Positions 14,076 through 64,000 of a DNA stretch of 64,000 bases are shown here, piece after piece. Source of the stretch: Escherichia coli (GTDB lineage Bacteria > Pseudomonadota > Gammaproteobacteria > Enterobacterales > Enterobacteriaceae); assembly GCF_044324875.1 (NCBI RefSeq), contig NZ_CP172186.1; one strand, 5' to 3'. The notes beneath the pieces were generated by a model. It saw only the letters and a program-made list of their open reading frames with translations, did no database searches and had not been told where the DNA came from. The position numbers and the translations under genes were made by a program. Each line of letters opens with the position of its first letter. Within the stretch, counting starts at the first letter, position 1.

Positions 14076-14459
14076 TCACACCTCGTCCTTTTTATGCGGG
14101 TATCTGGACAGAATATTGAGCGCCTGTAATGGCGCTTCATGCATTTCACGGATACAACGGGCATCGGTGATATTTTCCCGGTAATGTGTGGTTTCCAGCA
14201 TCATATGATGCATATGGAGCATCCGGGCCAGGGCTGCGCGGAGTTCTTCAATATGTTGTTCATGGGAATGCTGGCGGGGCTGTATCCGGCAGAGAGGGAT
14301 AACCTCCACATCATCCGGGTGCGCGCGAAGCCACGCGTCAGTGACTGCAATGTCGTCAGTGTAAAACCATGTGCCGGATGTCCCGTTGGCCAGAAAACGC
14401 ATTTTCCAGGCTTCTGGGGTGGCGGTTGTGTTGTTATCTTTCATGGTGCCACCACTCAT
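14076..14459 (-). CDS. Hypothetical protein (127 aa), His/Met-rich segment
   Basis: ORF with ATGA overlap to upstream ORF; HMHHMMLETTHY stretch. Confidence 0.45.
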   Translation of the reverse strand: MSGGTMKDNNTTATPEAWKMRFLANGTSGTWFYTDDIAVTDAWLRAHPDDVEVIPLCRIQPRQHSHEQHIEELRAALARMLHMHHMMLETTHYRENITDARCIREMHEAPLQALNILSRYPHKKDEV

Positions 14460-14647
14460 TCAACAGGCTTAATGCTGTCCAGGCGCAGTCTGCTCAGACT
14501 GTCGTGGCTGCCACAGCGGCGTCCAGTGCTTTTGCTGTAGCACTCCTGCCCCCTGATACACCATGCCGTTGGCGTTTCGTAGAGGCTGACACGTCGGGTT
14601 TTATCTTTAATGATGAGAAGCCCGGTGTGAGTTTTTGTCTTTTTCAT
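14456..14647 (-). CDS. Hypothetical small basic protein (63 aa)
   Basis: First ORF of the coupled cluster; weak support. Confidence 0.3.
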   Translation of the reverse strand: MKKTKTHTGLLIIKDKTRRVSLYETPTAWCIRGQECYSKSTGRRCGSHDSLSRLRLDSIKPVE

Positions 14648-54986: not shown

Positions 54987-56495
54987 TCAGTGCAGCAGCG
55001 TATAGCTGTCCTCGTCGATGGGAGAGATGTAATGGGCCGCCAGCGGATCAACCTGCCCGCTGTTGATTTTTCCCAGCAGATGCTGATTTCGTGTCATGCC
55101 GCCCAGCTCCCGGTGCCAGTATGTTCTGGCCTCAATACGCCCCTTTTCCCGGTACAACTGGAAAAAACGGGCATCCGGGGAGATGACTTCTGCGATCACC
55201 GTTCGTCCTGTCACGCCACGCCAGCAGTGCGGGCAGCCTTCATGATTTCGCAGATATACCTGGTCCGGGTTGCAGACGCTTTCCACCAGGTGCCGTTCAT
55301 CATCCGTGCGCTCGGTAGCCACCTCATGCCAGGGGCGACGGCAGTGCGGACATATCAGCTGAACCAGACGCTGGCTCAGCAGGCCAATGAACAGTTGCGG
55401 GTCGGCAATCATCCTGGCCTGTACCCCCTCCATCTCAAGACGTTCGAGGATGTTAATCGGGTCGTTCGCATGGATGGTGGTCAGCATCAGATGGCCGGTC
55501 ATGGCGGCTTTTATTGCCGTAATGGCGGAATCGTGGTCGCGGATTTCACCGTTCAGGATCCCGTCGGGGTCAAGACGCAGTGCCGATTTGATGGAGTCCA
55601 CCCAGCCCTGCGCGGTATCCATGACGGCGGTCTGAATGGCACCGGGAATACGCCCTTCCGGCGGGGATTCGATGGTGAACAGCCTGCGACGGGGAAGAAG
55701 AATATCGCCGGTGTTGTTGAAGCCGTACTGTTCAAGGTACGCCGCAGAGGCGGTTCTCAGCGTGGTGGATTTTCCTGAGCCGGTGGGGCCTGAGAGCGTG
55801 ATAATGCCTTCAGGGCGCTGCAGAATGCGGCGAAGAGTGCGCTCCTGGTCAGGGTGATAGCCCAGCATACTGAAGGTCGGGATTTGCTGACTGTCATCCT
55901 TGATCAGACGGAGCACAGCATATAGGCCGCCCACACAGGGGTAGTGGGAGTAGCGTGCACCAAACAGACCGGCCAGTTTCAGATACTGCTCTGAAAGACG
56001 TGCATCCTGAGGCACCCCGGGATCAAACTGTGTGCCCTTGATAACATCGGTCATGCCGGAATAGGTGGCCCCCAGTAATTCGAGGCCTTCTTCTTTCCGG
56101 AGGATATCGAGCACTTCCAGTTCGCCGTGAACCCGGGCTTCCACATAGGTGAAGTCCGTGTTGTCTCGTCCCGGGGTCATATGAAGGTCTGAGGCACCAA
56201 GAGAGGCAGAATGGCGGATATAGCCGAGCATTTTCTGCTGTACCGGGTTAATGACGCTTTCATCACCGGCGGTTGTGGTGTCCTGTCTGAGGCGGGCTAT
56301 CACATCCAGGGTGGTGAATTCAAAGTCTCCCACACGCCCCTGATGACGTGCGCGCAGGCGGGTCAGATATTCCTGGACGGCACGCAGATGTTTTTTTCCC
56401 TCCACGACCCTGACCCGCAGATGACCGGTTTTATCTGTGTCGATAGCCACATAATCCAGAATGTCATCCGGTGGCAGGTCTGCAGGCTCCAACAT
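54987..56495 (-). CDS. pilQ: PilQ pilus-assembly ATPase (GspE/PilB family)
   Basis: 502 aa, Walker A LSGPTGSGKSTT, tetracysteine motif. Confidence 0.85.
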   Translation of the reverse strand: MLEPADLPPDDILDYVAIDTDKTGHLRVRVVEGKKHLRAVQEYLTRLRARHQGRVGDFEFTTLDVIARLRQDTTTAGDESVINPVQQKMLGYIRHSASLGASDLHMTPGRDNTDFTYVEARVHGELEVLDILRKEEGLELLGATYSGMTDVIKGTQFDPGVPQDARLSEQYLKLAGLFGARYSHYPCVGGLYAVLRLIKDDSQQIPTFSMLGYHPDQERTLRRILQRPEGIITLSGPTGSGKSTTLRTASAAYLEQYGFNNTGDILLPRRRLFTIESPPEGRIPGAIQTAVMDTAQGWVDSIKSALRLDPDGILNGEIRDHDSAITAIKAAMTGHLMLTTIHANDPINILERLEMEGVQARMIADPQLFIGLLSQRLVQLICPHCRRPWHEVATERTDDERHLVESVCNPDQVYLRNHEGCPHCWRGVTGRTVIAEVISPDARFFQLYREKGRIEARTYWHRELGGMTRNQHLLGKINSGQVDPLAAHYISPIDEDSYTLLH

Positions 56496-56591: not shown

Positions 56592-57266
56592 TCAGCACAG
56601 GCTTAACAGTGTAAAAATGATTACGCCTCCAAAAGCGAATAACAGGGGAATGTTTTTCTCCGGCTGTGTTGATCTCAGCGTTAATACCGGTGTGGCGAGA
56701 GCGTAAAAAATAATACCTGCGGTATAAATAAAATAAGGTGTGATGCCGGACAGATTACATACACTGGCGAATATCATAAGCATGACGGCAACTACCGATA
56801 AAATAATGGAAGTATTCTTCCATTCACCAGATGGTGTAAGTGAAATGATATCGCCATCCTGTTTATAGTTCGTGTTCAGCTTCAGGAAATGACGGATATC
56901 TTTCAGCGTGTTCAGTTTCTGCTGGATATCTTCCACAAGTTCCTGTCTGTCGGTTTTTTCACGGAGCAGCTGGAATTTTGTCTCCCTCAGTACAGATATA
57001 ATACGGTCCACCTGGCCGGGGGAGGGATAGTAATGATGTTCGAGCATCCACCGGATATCGGCGATTAACCGGTCAGTTACCGGTGTATTACCGTTGTTAA
57101 TGAGAGGTGTTTCGTGCATCCACTGAAATATGCGGTAGATATGTTGCTTAACAAAAATAAAATCATCGGTGGTTTTATTCTCCAGCATGAGATATATCCC
57201 GTCGAGTGTTAATAATAAAACGTCCCGGGTGTGAGGTGATTTGTGATGTATTGTACGGAATATCAT
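56592..57266 (-). CDS. Hypothetical membrane protein (soluble N-domain, 3 C-terminal TM), AT-rich
   Basis: 224-aa ORF between pilP-like gene and pilQ. Confidence 0.4.
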   Translation of the reverse strand: MIFRTIHHKSPHTRDVLLLTLDGIYLMLENKTTDDFIFVKQHIYRIFQWMHETPLINNGNTPVTDRLIADIRWMLEHHYYPSPGQVDRIISVLRETKFQLLREKTDRQELVEDIQQKLNTLKDIRHFLKLNTNYKQDGDIISLTPSGEWKNTSIILSVVAVMLMIFASVCNLSGITPYFIYTAGIIFYALATPVLTLRSTQPEKNIPLLFAFGGVIIFTLLSLC

Positions 57267-57283: not shown

Positions 57284-57838
57284 TTACGCAGGTGATATAT
57301 CACACCAGAGTAAATACAGCGGAATGAAGCTGTAGAGTGACCAGAAAAGCCCGAGGGGATCTTTTGCCCACAGGCATAAGAATGTCAGTCCGGTGCACCA
57401 TGCGCCGGCAAGTGCCGCGCATAATTCAGCGCCTCCGGAATTGCCGCTCTTCATCATATAACAGAGCGCGATCAGCAGTGGGATAATGAAGACGAGCGGC
57501 AGGACAAAGGATTCGGCTGCGGATATCCATTCCCGGTAACGCCAGCGGTCGTTTAATCTGTCGGCATCATATTTCAGACAGTTGCTCAGGAACGCCAGAT
57601 CGTTCATGAGGGGGGCGTCCTGGCCATACTGCGCCGCGAGGCGCATTCTGGCACCCCACAACCGGGCACTCAGGGCACGGAGTTGTGCCGGGGTGACCTG
57701 TTTTCCCCGACAAAGTTGTACCTGTAATTGTGTTGCCTCGTGGACAATATCTGTGTGGTTCACCCCATATTCTGCAGCGGCTGTTTCCAGGTCACGGATG
57801 ATCAGGCTGAGCCAGGATATCAGTTCACTGATGTTCAT
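57284..57838 (-). CDS. Hypothetical membrane protein (soluble N-domain, 2 C-terminal TM)
   Basis: 184-aa ORF between pilP-like gene and pilQ. Confidence 0.4.
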   Translation of the reverse strand: MNISELISWLSLIIRDLETAAAEYGVNHTDIVHEATQLQVQLCRGKQVTPAQLRALSARLWGARMRLAAQYGQDAPLMNDLAFLSNCLKYDADRLNDRWRYREWISAAESFVLPLVFIIPLLIALCYMMKSGNSGGAELCAALAGAWCTGLTFLCLWAKDPLGLFWSLYSFIPLYLLWCDISPA

Positions 57839-59644: not shown

Positions 59645-61264
59645 TCAGATGATATTGGGCGTGATCAGCACCACGAGAATGGTGTCGTCGTTTTCACTGT
59701 TGATCCCACCGCCAAGACCGAAGAATCCCGGCGTGCCTACACCCTGTTTTCCGCTGCGACGTCCTGACTGCTGGAAGCCACTGATAATGACCGTCTGCCC
59801 GGATTTCAGATCCACGGTCTGATTGATGGTTTTCAGATCCACATTCGGCAGCTGGGCTTTACTTCCACCGCTCTCATAATTCTCAATAACCGGTTTGTCG
59901 GAGAGACTCATGGAATAGAGCAACTGCAGTGTCTGTGAGTCCGGGAGAATGAACGGCAGAAGGGTCATGTTAAAACCGGTGGTGATGGTGGCCGCATTCA
60001 GGGAGGTGGATGAGCCGACATTGGCAGTGGTATCCGTCGTCACACTCTCGATGTAACTCTGCTGATTGGCGATCTGCATTGGCACCGGCGTCAGGTTTTT
60101 GGTGACGGCAGAGTTCTGGGTCACCACACTGACATCCCCCTGGGAAGACAATGCTTTCAGGAAGGCTTTTGAACCGGTGAGTTTACCGTCCACAATGGAA
60201 ACACCACCTGTGATGGCATCACTGGCTGCACTGGTGAATGTGCTGCCGAGACTCAGTCCCAGCGTTCTGTCGCTGAAGACTGCGTTCCAGTCGATACCGG
60301 CCTGCTCATTGCGGGTTTTCCGGATACTCAGAATTTCCACATTCAGCACCACCTGACGTTTCATCTCTTCATTGCGTTTTTCAATGAATGCCCGGACCGT
60401 TTCCAGAACCTGTGGATTATCTGTGACGGTGATAAAGCCCGTGGACATGAACATGCGTCCGATACCCGGGGTCAGCATTGATGTGACCGCATTTTTCACA
60501 TCCTGATACAGCGCAGACTTCATATCCACGGTGGTGGTCTGGGTATTGCTGGCATCACCGGAAATGGCATCTGATGCACTGCCTCCTGATGAGCCGTTTG
60601 AGGACATGGTGCCGCTGACCACAGTGGCGTTATAGGTCACCTGACTGTCCATATAGGTGATGGGGAAGGTCTGTGTCTCGAGATAATAGAAGATGATATG
60701 CGAGCCGTCATAGCGCCAGGATATACCGAGACGGGAGGAGACCGCATTCAGCAGGGTCGTCAGGCCGGAGGCATTCAGTTCAGACAGTGCTGCGGTATTT
60801 CCCGGCAGACGGGATGGTGGCGTGTCAGATGCGCCAATGGCGGCAAGGGGGACCATGCCGCTCGCATCTGGTGGGGGTAACGCGCCCTGGATTTGTTGTG
60901 TGCTGCCGGTTGTGGATGTATTCAGGTATGTCAGTACATCAGGTGTGATCCGTACCGGAATATGGCAGCTTTCCGTGATTCGCTGAACCACCTGCTGAAG
61001 GGTGATGCTCTGACGGGTATGAATGACAATGGGACAACCGGGAACGGTTTTGCCGGTGTTTTTATCCATGACCGGACGGGGATTGATCCATTGTCGTGAT
61101 GATTCCTTAACAACCGGCGTCCGGGTTCGCAGATCAGACATCATTTCCCGTGCCCGTTGTTGTTCCGCAACGGCTTCCTTTCTTGTGCTCTCAAGCTCTC
61201 TGTAACTGGCACAGCCCTGTAACAGAGCGGCGGCAATCATAATGGCAAGAATTTTTTTATTCAT
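59645..61264 (-). CDS. pilN: PilN secretin-like outer-membrane lipoprotein
   Basis: Lipobox ALLQGCAS, 539 aa, secretin-type C-terminal domain. Confidence 0.7.
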   Translation of the reverse strand: MNKKILAIMIAAALLQGCASYRELESTRKEAVAEQQRAREMMSDLRTRTPVVKESSRQWINPRPVMDKNTGKTVPGCPIVIHTRQSITLQQVVQRITESCHIPVRITPDVLTYLNTSTTGSTQQIQGALPPPDASGMVPLAAIGASDTPPSRLPGNTAALSELNASGLTTLLNAVSSRLGISWRYDGSHIIFYYLETQTFPITYMDSQVTYNATVVSGTMSSNGSSGGSASDAISGDASNTQTTTVDMKSALYQDVKNAVTSMLTPGIGRMFMSTGFITVTDNPQVLETVRAFIEKRNEEMKRQVVLNVEILSIRKTRNEQAGIDWNAVFSDRTLGLSLGSTFTSAASDAITGGVSIVDGKLTGSKAFLKALSSQGDVSVVTQNSAVTKNLTPVPMQIANQQSYIESVTTDTTANVGSSTSLNAATITTGFNMTLLPFILPDSQTLQLLYSMSLSDKPVIENYESGGSKAQLPNVDLKTINQTVDLKSGQTVIISGFQQSGRRSGKQGVGTPGFFGLGGGINSENDDTILVVLITPNII

Positions 61265-61294: not shown

Positions 61295-61732
61295 CTAATT
61301 CATCCAGAGGATGACGTGATCGGGGATCACTGACGGAAGTGTGATGGAAAGCGCTCTGCCGGCAGTGTCCAGCAGTCGGCCGTTTTCCACCCTGCCGAGC
61401 AGAGCAGAGTCATTACTCTGTTCCCTGAGCGCGGCCATCAGGCCCGGGGTTTCTGTAGCCCAGACAAAAACACGTTGCTGGCTGATGATATGACTGACGG
61501 TATCCGTCCCGGGAATCCCGAGCTGAGCGGATGTCAGCCGCCCTCCGGCTGTCCGTCGTTCCGGATGCTGATGCAGGTAATCATTGATGGCGTTCATATA
61601 ACGAATGAACGTTGCTGCCTGTTGTGTGTTTTCTGCGGCCTGATGACGGTGTTCGCTGCGGGAGAGCTGACTGGTGAACCAGAAATTGCCGGTGGTCGTG
61701 ATGACCATGATGAACACGATGAACCAGCCCAT
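61295..61732 (-). CDS. pilM: PilM
   Basis: 145 aa, N-terminal TM; between pilL and pilN. Confidence 0.5.
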   Translation of the reverse strand: MGWFIVFIMVITTTGNFWFTSQLSRSEHRHQAAENTQQAATFIRYMNAINDYLHQHPERRTAGGRLTSAQLGIPGTDTVSHIISQQRVFVWATETPGLMAALREQSNDSALLGRVENGRLLDTAGRALSITLPSVIPDHVILWMN

Positions 61733-61736
61733 AAGG

Positions 61737-62807
61737 TTATTCCTGTGGACGATCTGTCACCCGCAGCAGACATTGTGCTGTGCTGGTCCGGGCATACAGC
61801 GGTTTTTCCACCGGGGTGTAGAGTGCAAAGAGCTGCTCCAGCGCCTGGCGGAAACTGCCGGTGAAAACCAGAGGAGCATCGATGCTGTAGTTGACAGGTG
61901 TTTCCCAGCGCAGTGTCCATGTGCCGTGCGGGCATTTTTCGGATGATGTCCAGCGGGCCAGTCCGTCTTTCAGGGTGGTCCCCTTTTCCATTTTCCATTG
62001 CCGTGGCGGTATGACCTTCTGCGGTGGTGGCACTACCGGTTTCGTGGCCACCGGGGCTGGCGTGGTTGTTCTGCTCTCTGGTGTTCCGGATGCCCCGGTG
62101 GTGGTCTGAGCCCGGGATACGCTGACGGCAGGTGTCACTGGTGTCGGGCCTGCCGGCGTTGCGGTGCTGCCCCTGAACGGATTACGCGGTGTATCAGCAG
62201 CTTTCTGTGAACCCTGCGGTGCCGTGACGTCGACCGGCGGTGTTGCAGAGGTCGTGACAGTCAGTATTTTCCTGTTCCAGTCCATATGTCCGTAAAGCTG
62301 CTGGCCGGCCAGCAGCGCATTCAGTGCCCGGTGCCACTGGTCATTAACGGACCAGGAAGGGAGGCGTTTGTTCAGTGCCGGTGTGGCGGCATTCTGCTGG
62401 CGGAACTGCCAGCCGGTTGGCAGCAGCTGGCGTATCCAGTCACTGACGGTGCGCTGACGTGCTTCACGTAAATAAACGACGGATGAGGGACCGGGCTTAC
62501 CGGTCATAACCAGTGCAGACAGCGGTGTGGCCTGAAGAAGCGGGCGGGGAGGCAGTGCGGTACTCTGGCTGCTGACAGTGGTTGAGGGTGTCGCCGTTGT
62601 TGTCGGACGGGGCGGTGTCACAGGGCGGGTCACCGGTGGCGGAAGCAGACGTTTTTGCGTATGGGTGATAATGGCAGCACTTTCGCGAATTTGTCCGTCG
62701 ACGAACACCAGAGCCGGAGGCGTGGTATCCGGAACAGGCGTGGCATTAAATGCCGTACAGCCGCTGAGTAATGACGGCAGAAGGAGTGTCAGTGATTTCT
62801 TTTGCAT
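61737..62807 (-). CDS. pilL: PilL lipoprotein
   Basis: Lipobox LLSGCTA, 356 aa, Pro/Thr-rich linker. Confidence 0.7.
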   Translation of the reverse strand: MQKKSLTLLLPSLLSGCTAFNATPVPDTTPPALVFVDGQIRESAAIITHTQKRLLPPPVTRPVTPPRPTTTATPSTTVSSQSTALPPRPLLQATPLSALVMTGKPGPSSVVYLREARQRTVSDWIRQLLPTGWQFRQQNAATPALNKRLPSWSVNDQWHRALNALLAGQQLYGHMDWNRKILTVTTSATPPVDVTAPQGSQKAADTPRNPFRGSTATPAGPTPVTPAVSVSRAQTTTGASGTPESRTTTPAPVATKPVVPPPQKVIPPRQWKMEKGTTLKDGLARWTSSEKCPHGTWTLRWETPVNYSIDAPLVFTGSFRQALEQLFALYTPVEKPLYARTSTAQCLLRVTDRPQE

Positions 62808-62928
62808 AGAATATAATCCGGTATATTACGGGTTACGGTATAAGACAGGTGGCGGGTAACTGGCCTTCAGATGAATATCATTTCATCGGGTTATTGATGA
62901 TGAACCTTAAAAATCACAGAGGTGATGC

Positions 62929-63324
62929 ATGATAAAGAAGATGTGGCGTTATTTACGGCAAATTGATAAGTATGAATTGCTGCAGCAGGTGATTTCAGTA
63001 CATGAAGTGGAACTGCTCAGGAAAATGATGACAGATTCATTATTAGGGTGCTCAGTAGGATATGTGTTTTCGAAAATACTGAAGATATCCTTTCTGCGTT
63101 TTATTCAGTCTGAGGGGGGATGGGATATTATTACTTACTTTTTGTGGATGCTGGGAATGCTTATTGTCATGGCCGTGCTGTTTATCTGGATGTGCGCCGC
63201 TGTATGCTATGAGCTTCGGATGTATAAAATAAAAACAGGAAGGGAGAACGATATATTATTCTGGGTGTGGATTCTTCTTTTTGATGTCGCGGTTGTATTT
63301 TCGCTGGGTAATGTTATCTGGTGA
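62929..63324 (+). CDS. Hypothetical membrane protein, AT-rich
   Basis: 131 aa, 3 TM helices. Confidence 0.35.
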   Translation: MIKKMWRYLRQIDKYELLQQVISVHEVELLRKMMTDSLLGCSVGYVFSKILKISFLRFIQSEGGWDIITYFLWMLGMLIVMAVLFIWMCAAVCYELRMYKIKTGRENDILFWVWILLFDVAVVFSLGNVIW

Positions 63325-63756
63325 TTATGGGTTCAGTGACATATGGAAAAAGATAAGTGCGAACATTGATACTGAAGAATAATATATCCAGGAATAGAAA
63401 AACATGAATTTCGGAGATGGTTTCTTCTGTCTCCTGTTTTTCAGGGGAGTCTGTGGGTCAAATGTTATCAGCGTCATTAAAGGATACCCTTTCATAAGAA
63501 TAAAAATATAGACGCATAAATGAGCGTAAAGAGGTAACCTGTCCTGCCAGAACAGAATCATCATGATGACGGCAAGATGAAATGTCGTTACATTGATATA
63601 ATAAAACCAGCTGTATTTACGCAGATACTGTTGGATATTCACGCTGTCAGCATGCGGTTCTGGTGAACAATTTATGCAAAAACAGAAGAAAGAAATGATG
63701 ATGAACACGGTCAGAGTGACCGGTAATACAGTCACAAGCAGAAAGAGTATGGACAT
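63325..63756 (-). CDS. Hypothetical membrane protein, AT-rich
   Basis: 143 aa, 4 TM helices; convergent with previous ORF. Confidence 0.35.
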   Translation of the reverse strand: MSILFLLVTVLPVTLTVFIIISFFCFCINCSPEPHADSVNIQQYLRKYSWFYYINVTTFHLAVIMMILFWQDRLPLYAHLCVYIFILMKGYPLMTLITFDPQTPLKNRRQKKPSPKFMFFYSWIYYSSVSMFALIFFHMSLNP

Positions 63757-64000
63757 AAAAATATCTCCGTCAGGATAGTGTGATTATTCCTTTATGGTTC
63801 CATAACCCGGCGTAGCTCCGTCGACTGGTTATAATTTTATCCGGGACCTGGCTTTAAGGGGTAATGCCACCTCTTTCCATTCACTACAGCTTCCGGGAAT
63901 ACGTTCTGTGCGTCGTATTATTCGTGTGTTCTGGCATACAATAATCAGGGCATTGTCTGCCGTCTGAAAAGGCATAATCGCAATGTTAATATCTTCTGTT

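Follow-up and report, generated by a model that had tools for sequence, protein, structure and literature searches.

The window (the whole 64,000-nucleotide stretch of Escherichia coli contig NZ_CP172186.1 that was analysed) reaches, at its end, the beginning of a thin-pilus (type IVb) operon that belongs to an I-complex conjugative plasmid and is read from the minus strand. The list of open reading frames (ORFs) includes pilN (59645-61264, minus strand; Pfam Secretin), pilM (61295-61732, minus strand; Pfam PilM) and pilL (61737-62807, minus strand). The last of these, a lipoprotein gene with a TcpQ domain (Pfam and RefSeq annotation), heads the conserved thin-pilus biogenesis genes that lie downstream of the interval considered here. 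It carries a 101-bp leader (62808-62908, minus strand), delimited by pairwise blastn of the interval against the corresponding regions of other plasmids (L003, L004, L006, L007, L008, L010, L011 and L014). Further along the operon, two hypothetical ORFs of 184 and 224 amino acids (57284-57838 and 56592-57266, both minus strand) lie between pilP and pilQ and may be another lineage-specific insertion. The record of plasmid pCh101 (L021, NZ_CP127318.1, 53500-103000) has pilQ, pilR, traO, a traU-like gene and traY annotated as frameshifted. Since pilQ (54987-56495) and pilR are intact in the window, the frameshifts in pCh101 probably arose in assembly.

Two ORFs, here called orf131 and orf143, occupy the interval upstream of pilL. 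The first-pass annotation had described them as a convergent pair of 131 and 143 amino acids with three or four transmembrane helices each, and this description was borne out, down to the exact coordinates. orf131 runs from 62929 to 63324 on the plus strand, opposite to the pil operon, whereas orf143 (63325-63756, minus strand) lies on the operon strand and begins 72 nt downstream of pilI. Both start with ATG and they meet tail to tail with no gap. Shine-Dalgarno sequences are found 4 nt before the start of orf131 (GAGGTG) and 8 nt before that of orf143 (GGAG).

From hydropathy and AlphaFold secondary structure, the orf131 product starts with a basic stretch of about 36 residues, predicted to be cytoplasmic, followed by three predicted transmembrane helices. 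The orf143 product has four long hydrophobic helices, also predicted to span the membrane. Lys and Arg are abundant in one of its loops (residues 99-117), and both termini are therefore predicted to be periplasmic. The structure models are not informative about function: that of orf131 is a generic three-helix bundle and that of orf143 has a mean pLDDT of only 48. orf131 is present in RefSeq as the hypothetical protein WP_029391920. In contrast, orf143 is not called by PGAP and has no annotated feature in the window-type plasmid records listed from PLSDB/RefSeq, although it is called by the Logan/ENA pipelines and in two GenBank records. Its absence from RefSeq is a systematic annotation gap affecting a conserved small membrane protein.

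On the other side of the pair, the 3' two-thirds of pilI (residues 25-80 of 80) occupy 63829-64000 on the minus strand, where the gene is cut by the end of the window; its start would lie at window-equivalent position 64071. The segment 63832-63999 (minus strand) matches the Pfam PilI family (PF10623) with 77.4 bits, and the full protein from the identical plasmid L001 scores 109.5 bits, both well above the gathering cut-off of 25 bits. The complete 80-residue pilI is annotated by RefSeq in identical plasmids (L001 and L002). PGAP omits it in the 100%-identical pCh101 (NZ_CP127318.1), yet annotates it in other identical plasmids. The earlier statement that nothing recognisable lies where pilI, pilJ and pilK would be expected must thus be divided: pilI is present, while homologues of pilJ and pilK are indeed missing. 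Beyond the window, a 181-bp remnant of a flotillin gene (99-100% identical; about 7426-7606 in L001, window-equivalent 64125-64305) can be seen. The corresponding flotillin/YqiJ (NfeD-like) gene pair has been lost from window-type plasmids and is retained between pilI and traC in many sister plasmids.

Both ORFs are AT-rich. Their GC contents (0.396 for orf131 and 0.380 for orf143) are well below those of pilL (0.598), pilM (0.562), pilN (0.531) and the whole window (0.524), so that the difference from the pil genes noted in the first-pass annotation is real. The deficit is located mostly at codon positions 1 and 2: GC1/2/3 values are 0.42/0.29/0.48 for orf131 and 0.35/0.31/0.47 for orf143, compared with 0.61/0.58/0.60 for pilL. 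Part of it is explained by the proteins themselves, which are hydrophobic and rich in Phe, Ile, Leu and Tyr. In addition, the pilJ-pilK segment of the IncI1 plasmid pEK204 shows the same dip (0.35-0.38, with flanks of 0.50-0.56). We therefore rejected the idea that AT-richness marks recently acquired foreign DNA. This composition is characteristic of the interval between pilI and pilL (hereafter the slot) and is not anomalous there.

The position of the pair becomes clear on comparison with reference plasmids. In R64/IncI1, the gap filled here by orf143 and orf131 carries pilJ and pilK; in pEK204, for example, the order is pilI, pilJ (98 aa), pilK (197 aa) and pilL. The pair is a local occupant of a variable AT-rich slot and not an oddity replacing a missing module. 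A megablast search with 62700-64000 showed this segment to be 99.8-100% identical in about 90 plasmids, mostly from poultry-associated E. coli and typed as IncK2/Z. In 5,426 complete E. coli genomes, all 392 places containing the slot stretch were on plasmids and none on chromosomes.

Relatives of the two proteins define two families, which we call A (orf143) and B (orf131). By tblastn, each occurs in 149 plasmid records with an identical breakdown of host organisms. The reference set comprised some 460 records with a pilL region at least 80% identical; about one third of the IncB/O/K/Z records carry both families, always together and convergent, and the others carry neither. The members of a pair always meet tail to tail, either abutting or overlapping by 8-11 nt. 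Every copy found sits between pilI (or traC) and pilL, and the hosts are a subset of E. coli-group I-complex plasmids (IncK2/Z, IncI-gamma/K1 and B/O).

Family B proteins at the same site and in the same orientation in sister plasmids are 141-146 residues long and share 33-37% identity with orf131. Their alignment has 37 invariant columns, including the motifs V.LLR..MTDSLL.CS.G.VF and EGG. Family A includes a 295-residue protein (L008 3106-3993, minus strand; also in L003, L004, L010, L011 and L014), both halves of which are about 27-30% identical to orf143. The matches cover residues 1-128 (E about 1e-11 to 1e-12) and 153-282 (E between about 5e-10 and 3e-8). Because each half aligns to orf143, the longer protein is a head-to-tail tandem duplication of the 143-residue module.

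The number of modules varies. The window has pilI, orf143, orf131 (reversed) and pilL, while many Logan contigs have pilI, a 143-aa gene, a 295-aa gene, a reversed 141-aa gene and pilL; AP024117 shares this arrangement with an extra small membrane ORF. In these sister plasmids the successive spacings from pilI to the 143-aa gene and on to the 295-aa gene are 27 and 79 nt. An IncI-gamma/K1 example carries pilI, the 295-aa gene, a reversed 141-aa gene and pilL. CP024887 has a 169-aa ORF where pilI would be, followed by the 295-aa gene, a reversed 141-aa gene and pilL, and in CP088788 the order is pilI, a truncated copy of the 143 module with a Cys-rich ORF joined to it, the 295-aa gene, a reversed 142-aa gene and pilL. 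The 169-aa product (L004 5523-6032, minus strand) has two transmembrane helices and a charged C-terminal domain, and gives a weak PADLOC match to the '2TM effector' model (E = 0.007).

The flanks, on the other hand, are conserved. pilL with its 101-bp leader is about 91-96% identical in all IncB/O/K/Z slot variants, and the pilI region is 88-94% identical across the plasmids compared over the pilL-pilI interval. Relative to the type with 143-, 295- and 141-aa genes, orf131 replaces the segment containing the 295- and 141-aa genes, with breakpoints at gene boundaries: 63323/63324 and, at the distal end of the pilL leader, 62908/62909, which forms the left limit of the variable cassette. By these comparisons, the stretch between pilI and pilL varies among I-complex plasmids and has conserved flanks and a replaceable middle.

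About two thirds of the IncB/O/K/Z records lack both families, yet their pilL and pilI remain some 90-95% identical at the nucleotide level. Their slot contains only an ORF for a soluble, Cys-rich protein of 106-111 residues, or a decayed copy of this ORF (it is found, for instance, at 2812-3132 in L006 and 2725-3060 in L007, both minus strand). Since most sister plasmids do without the pair, it is not essential for the pilus and is dispensable for the backbone. In more distant MPF_I plasmids of Enterobacter, Salmonella Rubislaw and Yersinia similis, unrelated small soluble ORFs precede pilL, and in IncI2 TP114 and the S. Typhi pil cluster pilI, pilJ and pilK are wholly absent (PMC9045228, PMC6232867). 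In pMS7163B, the plasmid used in an I-complex TraDIS study, the gene at 14202-14537 is labelled 'pilK'; surface conjugation rose when transposons were inserted in this gene or in pilI (logFC +3.2 and +2.9, respectively; PMC10286972, with the label in a supplementary table). From its size and position, this 'pilK' would be the Cys-rich ORF, unrelated to R64 PilK and apparently named by position.

Are the two window ORFs genes? To estimate chance expectation, the 1020-bp pilL-pilI interval was simulated 2000 times with a first-order Markov model. The longest ORF averaged 68 residues; at least one of 131 residues or more occurred in 26 of the 2000 simulations, and two in none. Intact variants of the 143-aa gene (90-97% identity) have dN/dS values of 0.26-0.65 and keep their frame through 19-24 substitutions. 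Values are mostly 0.28-0.58 for the 141- and 295-aa genes together and mostly 0.32-0.58 within the 141-aa clade, compared with 0.13-0.24 for pilL. Taken at about 0.3-0.55, against the lower range of pilL, they indicate purifying but relaxed selection on both families. The decisive point is that protein homology persists where nucleotide similarity has vanished; with the Shine-Dalgarno sites, dN/dS below 1 and a length beyond chance, this identifies both ORFs as real genes for small polytopic membrane proteins.

The alternative that they are spurious, or functionless remnants in a decaying intergenic spacer, is accordingly improbable, although decay is visible elsewhere in the slot. L003 has a truncated 143 module fused to the Cys-rich ORF, L020 a frameshifted Cys-rich ORF, and L011 an N-terminally truncated 141-aa ORF. 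Many shortened variants also occur in the databases, PGAP does not call orf143, and selection is relaxed, all of which would fit degeneration. Such remnants would nevertheless not be expected to retain invariant motifs at about 30% identity, consistently low dN/dS, an intact frame and good ribosome-binding sites on both ORFs, nor to reach a pair of lengths that no simulated interval attained.

A match to pilI/J/K homologues would have contradicted the first-pass annotation; none to PilJ or PilK was found for either ORF by BLASTP or profile comparison. BLASTP of PilK (pEK204, 197 aa) against both ORFs gave no alignment with E below 1, and hhalign assigned a probability of 0.1% to its relationship with either family. 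PilJ gave no BLASTP alignment with the window ORFs at E up to 10, and only weak alignments (E above 1) with the 295-residue sister proteins. The hhalign probability was 0.5% for family B against PilJ and 5.6% for family A, the latter over a 12-residue QQY(L/F)..Y motif only. Predicted architectures also differ: by hydropathy, PilK combines transmembrane segments at residues 5-24 and 34-68 with a soluble C-terminal domain some 130 residues long, and PilJ has two transmembrane helices, whereas orf143 has four and no soluble domain, and orf131 has its basic 36-residue head and three.

The likeness is therefore one of place and type. The pair shares with PilJ and PilK the slot itself, AT-richness relative to the flanks and the character of small membrane proteins. 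orf143, like pilJ, lies directly downstream of pilI on the pil strand, a positional likeness that does not establish membership of the PilJ family. orf131, unlike either, lies on the opposite strand. It is very unlikely that the two are true orthologues of R64 pilJ and pilK that have diverged beyond recognition. PilI itself is only about 25-27% identical (BLASTP) between IncI1 and the window lineage, so small hydrophobic neighbours could have drifted past detection, and the faint QQY(L/F)..Y match might be a trace of this. All comparisons are, however, non-significant, the architectures disagree, and the orientation of orf131 would require an inversion. Judging from the titles of Yoshida 1999 and Sakai & Komano 2002, as cited in PMC10286972, pilK is required for R64 thin-pilus biogenesis, whereas the window pair is absent from most sister IncB/O/K/Z plasmids.

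Searches outside the slot were equally unrevealing. Neither ORF matched Pfam or NCBIfam at E below 0.01, and the sister proteins gave nothing meaningful either. PADLOC reported no family for either ORF, and the best PHROGs matches (E = 0.15 and 0.84) were to families of unknown function. Profile searches of both families against PDB sequences gave nothing meaningful. A word-indexed search of 5.8 billion proteins with each ORF returned only E. coli plasmid relatives, and the family B profile used on this collection matched E. coli proteins only. An exhaustive HMMER search with the family A profile over 1.84 billion representative proteins gave six hits, all in its own family; no relatives were found when the family B alignment was scanned against representative genomes of 100,044 species. 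By these searches, both families are orphans. The literature searched, including papers on IncK2 and the I-complex, contains no expression or phenotype data on either ORF.

Signals for expression are sparse. A promoter scan found no consensus sigma-70 promoter for orf131 or orf143. The pil operon is activator-dependent, and the lack of such a promoter on the pil strand is compatible with this. A terminator scan and folding showed no terminator-like structure past orf143 on the minus strand, which makes read-through from pilI into orf143, across orf131 in antisense and on into pilL plausible. The plus strand has a G+C-rich hairpin and then UGUUUUUC (63413-63434; -12.4 kcal/mol, z = -2.8) within orf143, about 90 nt past the orf131 stop. 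Transcription of orf131 might terminate at this hairpin, an assignment made uncertain by its equal conservation in L010, L011 and L014, where the orf143 counterpart abuts no convergent gene. A perfect 13-nt inverted repeat (GATATATTATTCT at 63250-63262 and AGAATAATATATC at 63376-63388) spans the junction of the convergent ORFs. It is possibly fortuitous, because only one of its arms is in DNA that the sister plasmids share; the other is window-specific. Rfam gave nothing relevant over 62000-64000.

The explanation we favour, tentatively and with something short of an even chance of being right, is that the pair are dispensable, lineage-specific inner-membrane accessories of the thin-pilus operon, analogues and not homologues of PilJ and PilK. 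orf143 would be read on the TraB/TraC-dependent pil transcript, which would pass from pilI through orf143 and on to pilL. Its product would sit in the inner membrane with both termini periplasmic, would probably form a parallel homodimer, as suggested by the existence of the fused tandem-duplicate 295-residue version, and would act as an accessory of the type IVb machinery. orf131, expressed from the opposite strand, would give a second membrane protein that partners or modulates the family A product, and its transcription in antisense may in addition reduce read-through into pilL.

The facts bearing on function are residence only in the pil slot, the operon-like placement of family A, its constant antisense companion in family B, the variable number of modules, allele-like divergence between conserved flanks, patchy presence and relaxed constraint. 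In favour of this explanation are the reality of both genes, their confinement to the pil slot with no relatives elsewhere, the spacing of orf143 like an operon member with no terminator-like structure after it, and the behaviour of the pair as a unit. IncI1 provides a precedent, as pilJ and pilK, which occupy the same slot there, are likewise AT-rich and encode small membrane proteins. Several observations argue against it: the dissimilarity to PilJ and PilK, the sister plasmids that manage without the pair, the absence of pilI, pilJ and pilK from TP114 and S. Typhi, and the unrelated soluble ORFs of distant MPF_I plasmids. The orientation of orf131 against the operon, the missing sigma-70 promoter, the relaxed selection and the many shortened database variants count on the same side.

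The main rival, which we consider possible but rather unlikely, is a self-contained accessory cassette that is unrelated to pilus assembly and has settled in a permissive, AT-rich hot spot. Such a cassette could provide membrane-level exclusion or immunity, or combine a membrane toxin with its antidote, in which case the 131- and 141-residue forms would be specificity alleles. Allelic replacement speaks for it: orf131 and the 141-residue form are only 33-37% identical between flanks of about 88-96% nucleotide identity, with breakpoints at gene boundaries. So do the patchy distribution among closely related backbones, the convergent layout with overlapping 3' ends and a possible terminator of its own, and the changing module content (143 alone, 295 alone or both). 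This has to be set against the lack of any PADLOC, PHROGs, Pfam or NCBIfam match and of any toxin gene adjacent or annotated in the 50 kb examined. The plasmid also already carries the I-complex exclusion pair excA/traY. Furthermore, the families were found nowhere outside the pil slot, which is unusual for mobile immunity or defence cargo, and orf143 is spaced like a member of the operon.

Known systems resemble the pair in part. Entry-exclusion proteins such as F TraS, and phage superinfection-exclusion proteins, are typically small, AT-rich, fast-evolving and polytopic. The two window genes would resemble F TraS and ExcA in these properties, in their location in a conjugation cluster between conserved neighbours and in their allele-like divergence. 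They differ in being two proteins on opposite strands instead of one, in matching no curated family and in coexisting with excA/traY. Immunity genes of pore-forming colicins are reversed and encode inner-membrane proteins of about 100-180 residues with three or four transmembrane helices on enterobacterial plasmids. The size, number of helices and convergence with a neighbour are similar here. In contrast to colicin immunity genes, however, there is no Pfam or NCBIfam match and no colicin or lysis gene adjacent or annotated in the 50 kb examined; the convergent partner is another small membrane protein gene and the neighbours are pilL and pilI.

A more speculative idea, to which we give only a small probability, would make the pair an allele-specific recognition module acting at the membrane and tied to the thin pilus, with variants exchanged as cassettes between near-identical pil operons. 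Examples would be a second system for exclusion or self-recognition, or a toxin with its antidote; the 131- and 141-residue forms and the single or duplicated 143 modules would then represent specificity variants.

Among the major carriers of blaCMY-2 and blaCTX-M in poultry and humans are IncK2 and related I-complex plasmids, whose transfer in liquid and in the gut is driven by the thin pilus. Across the I-complex, the pilJ/pilK position is a slot of variable content, occupied by unrelated membrane proteins that are each restricted to a lineage; one of them lacks RefSeq annotation. This variability corrects the naming of genes by position (for example, the 'pilK' of pMS7163B). The comparison also singles out a few testable candidates for genes that might modulate pilus function, exclusion or the fitness cost of carrying the plasmid. 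If the pair should prove to be functionless, the outcome would simply be better annotation.
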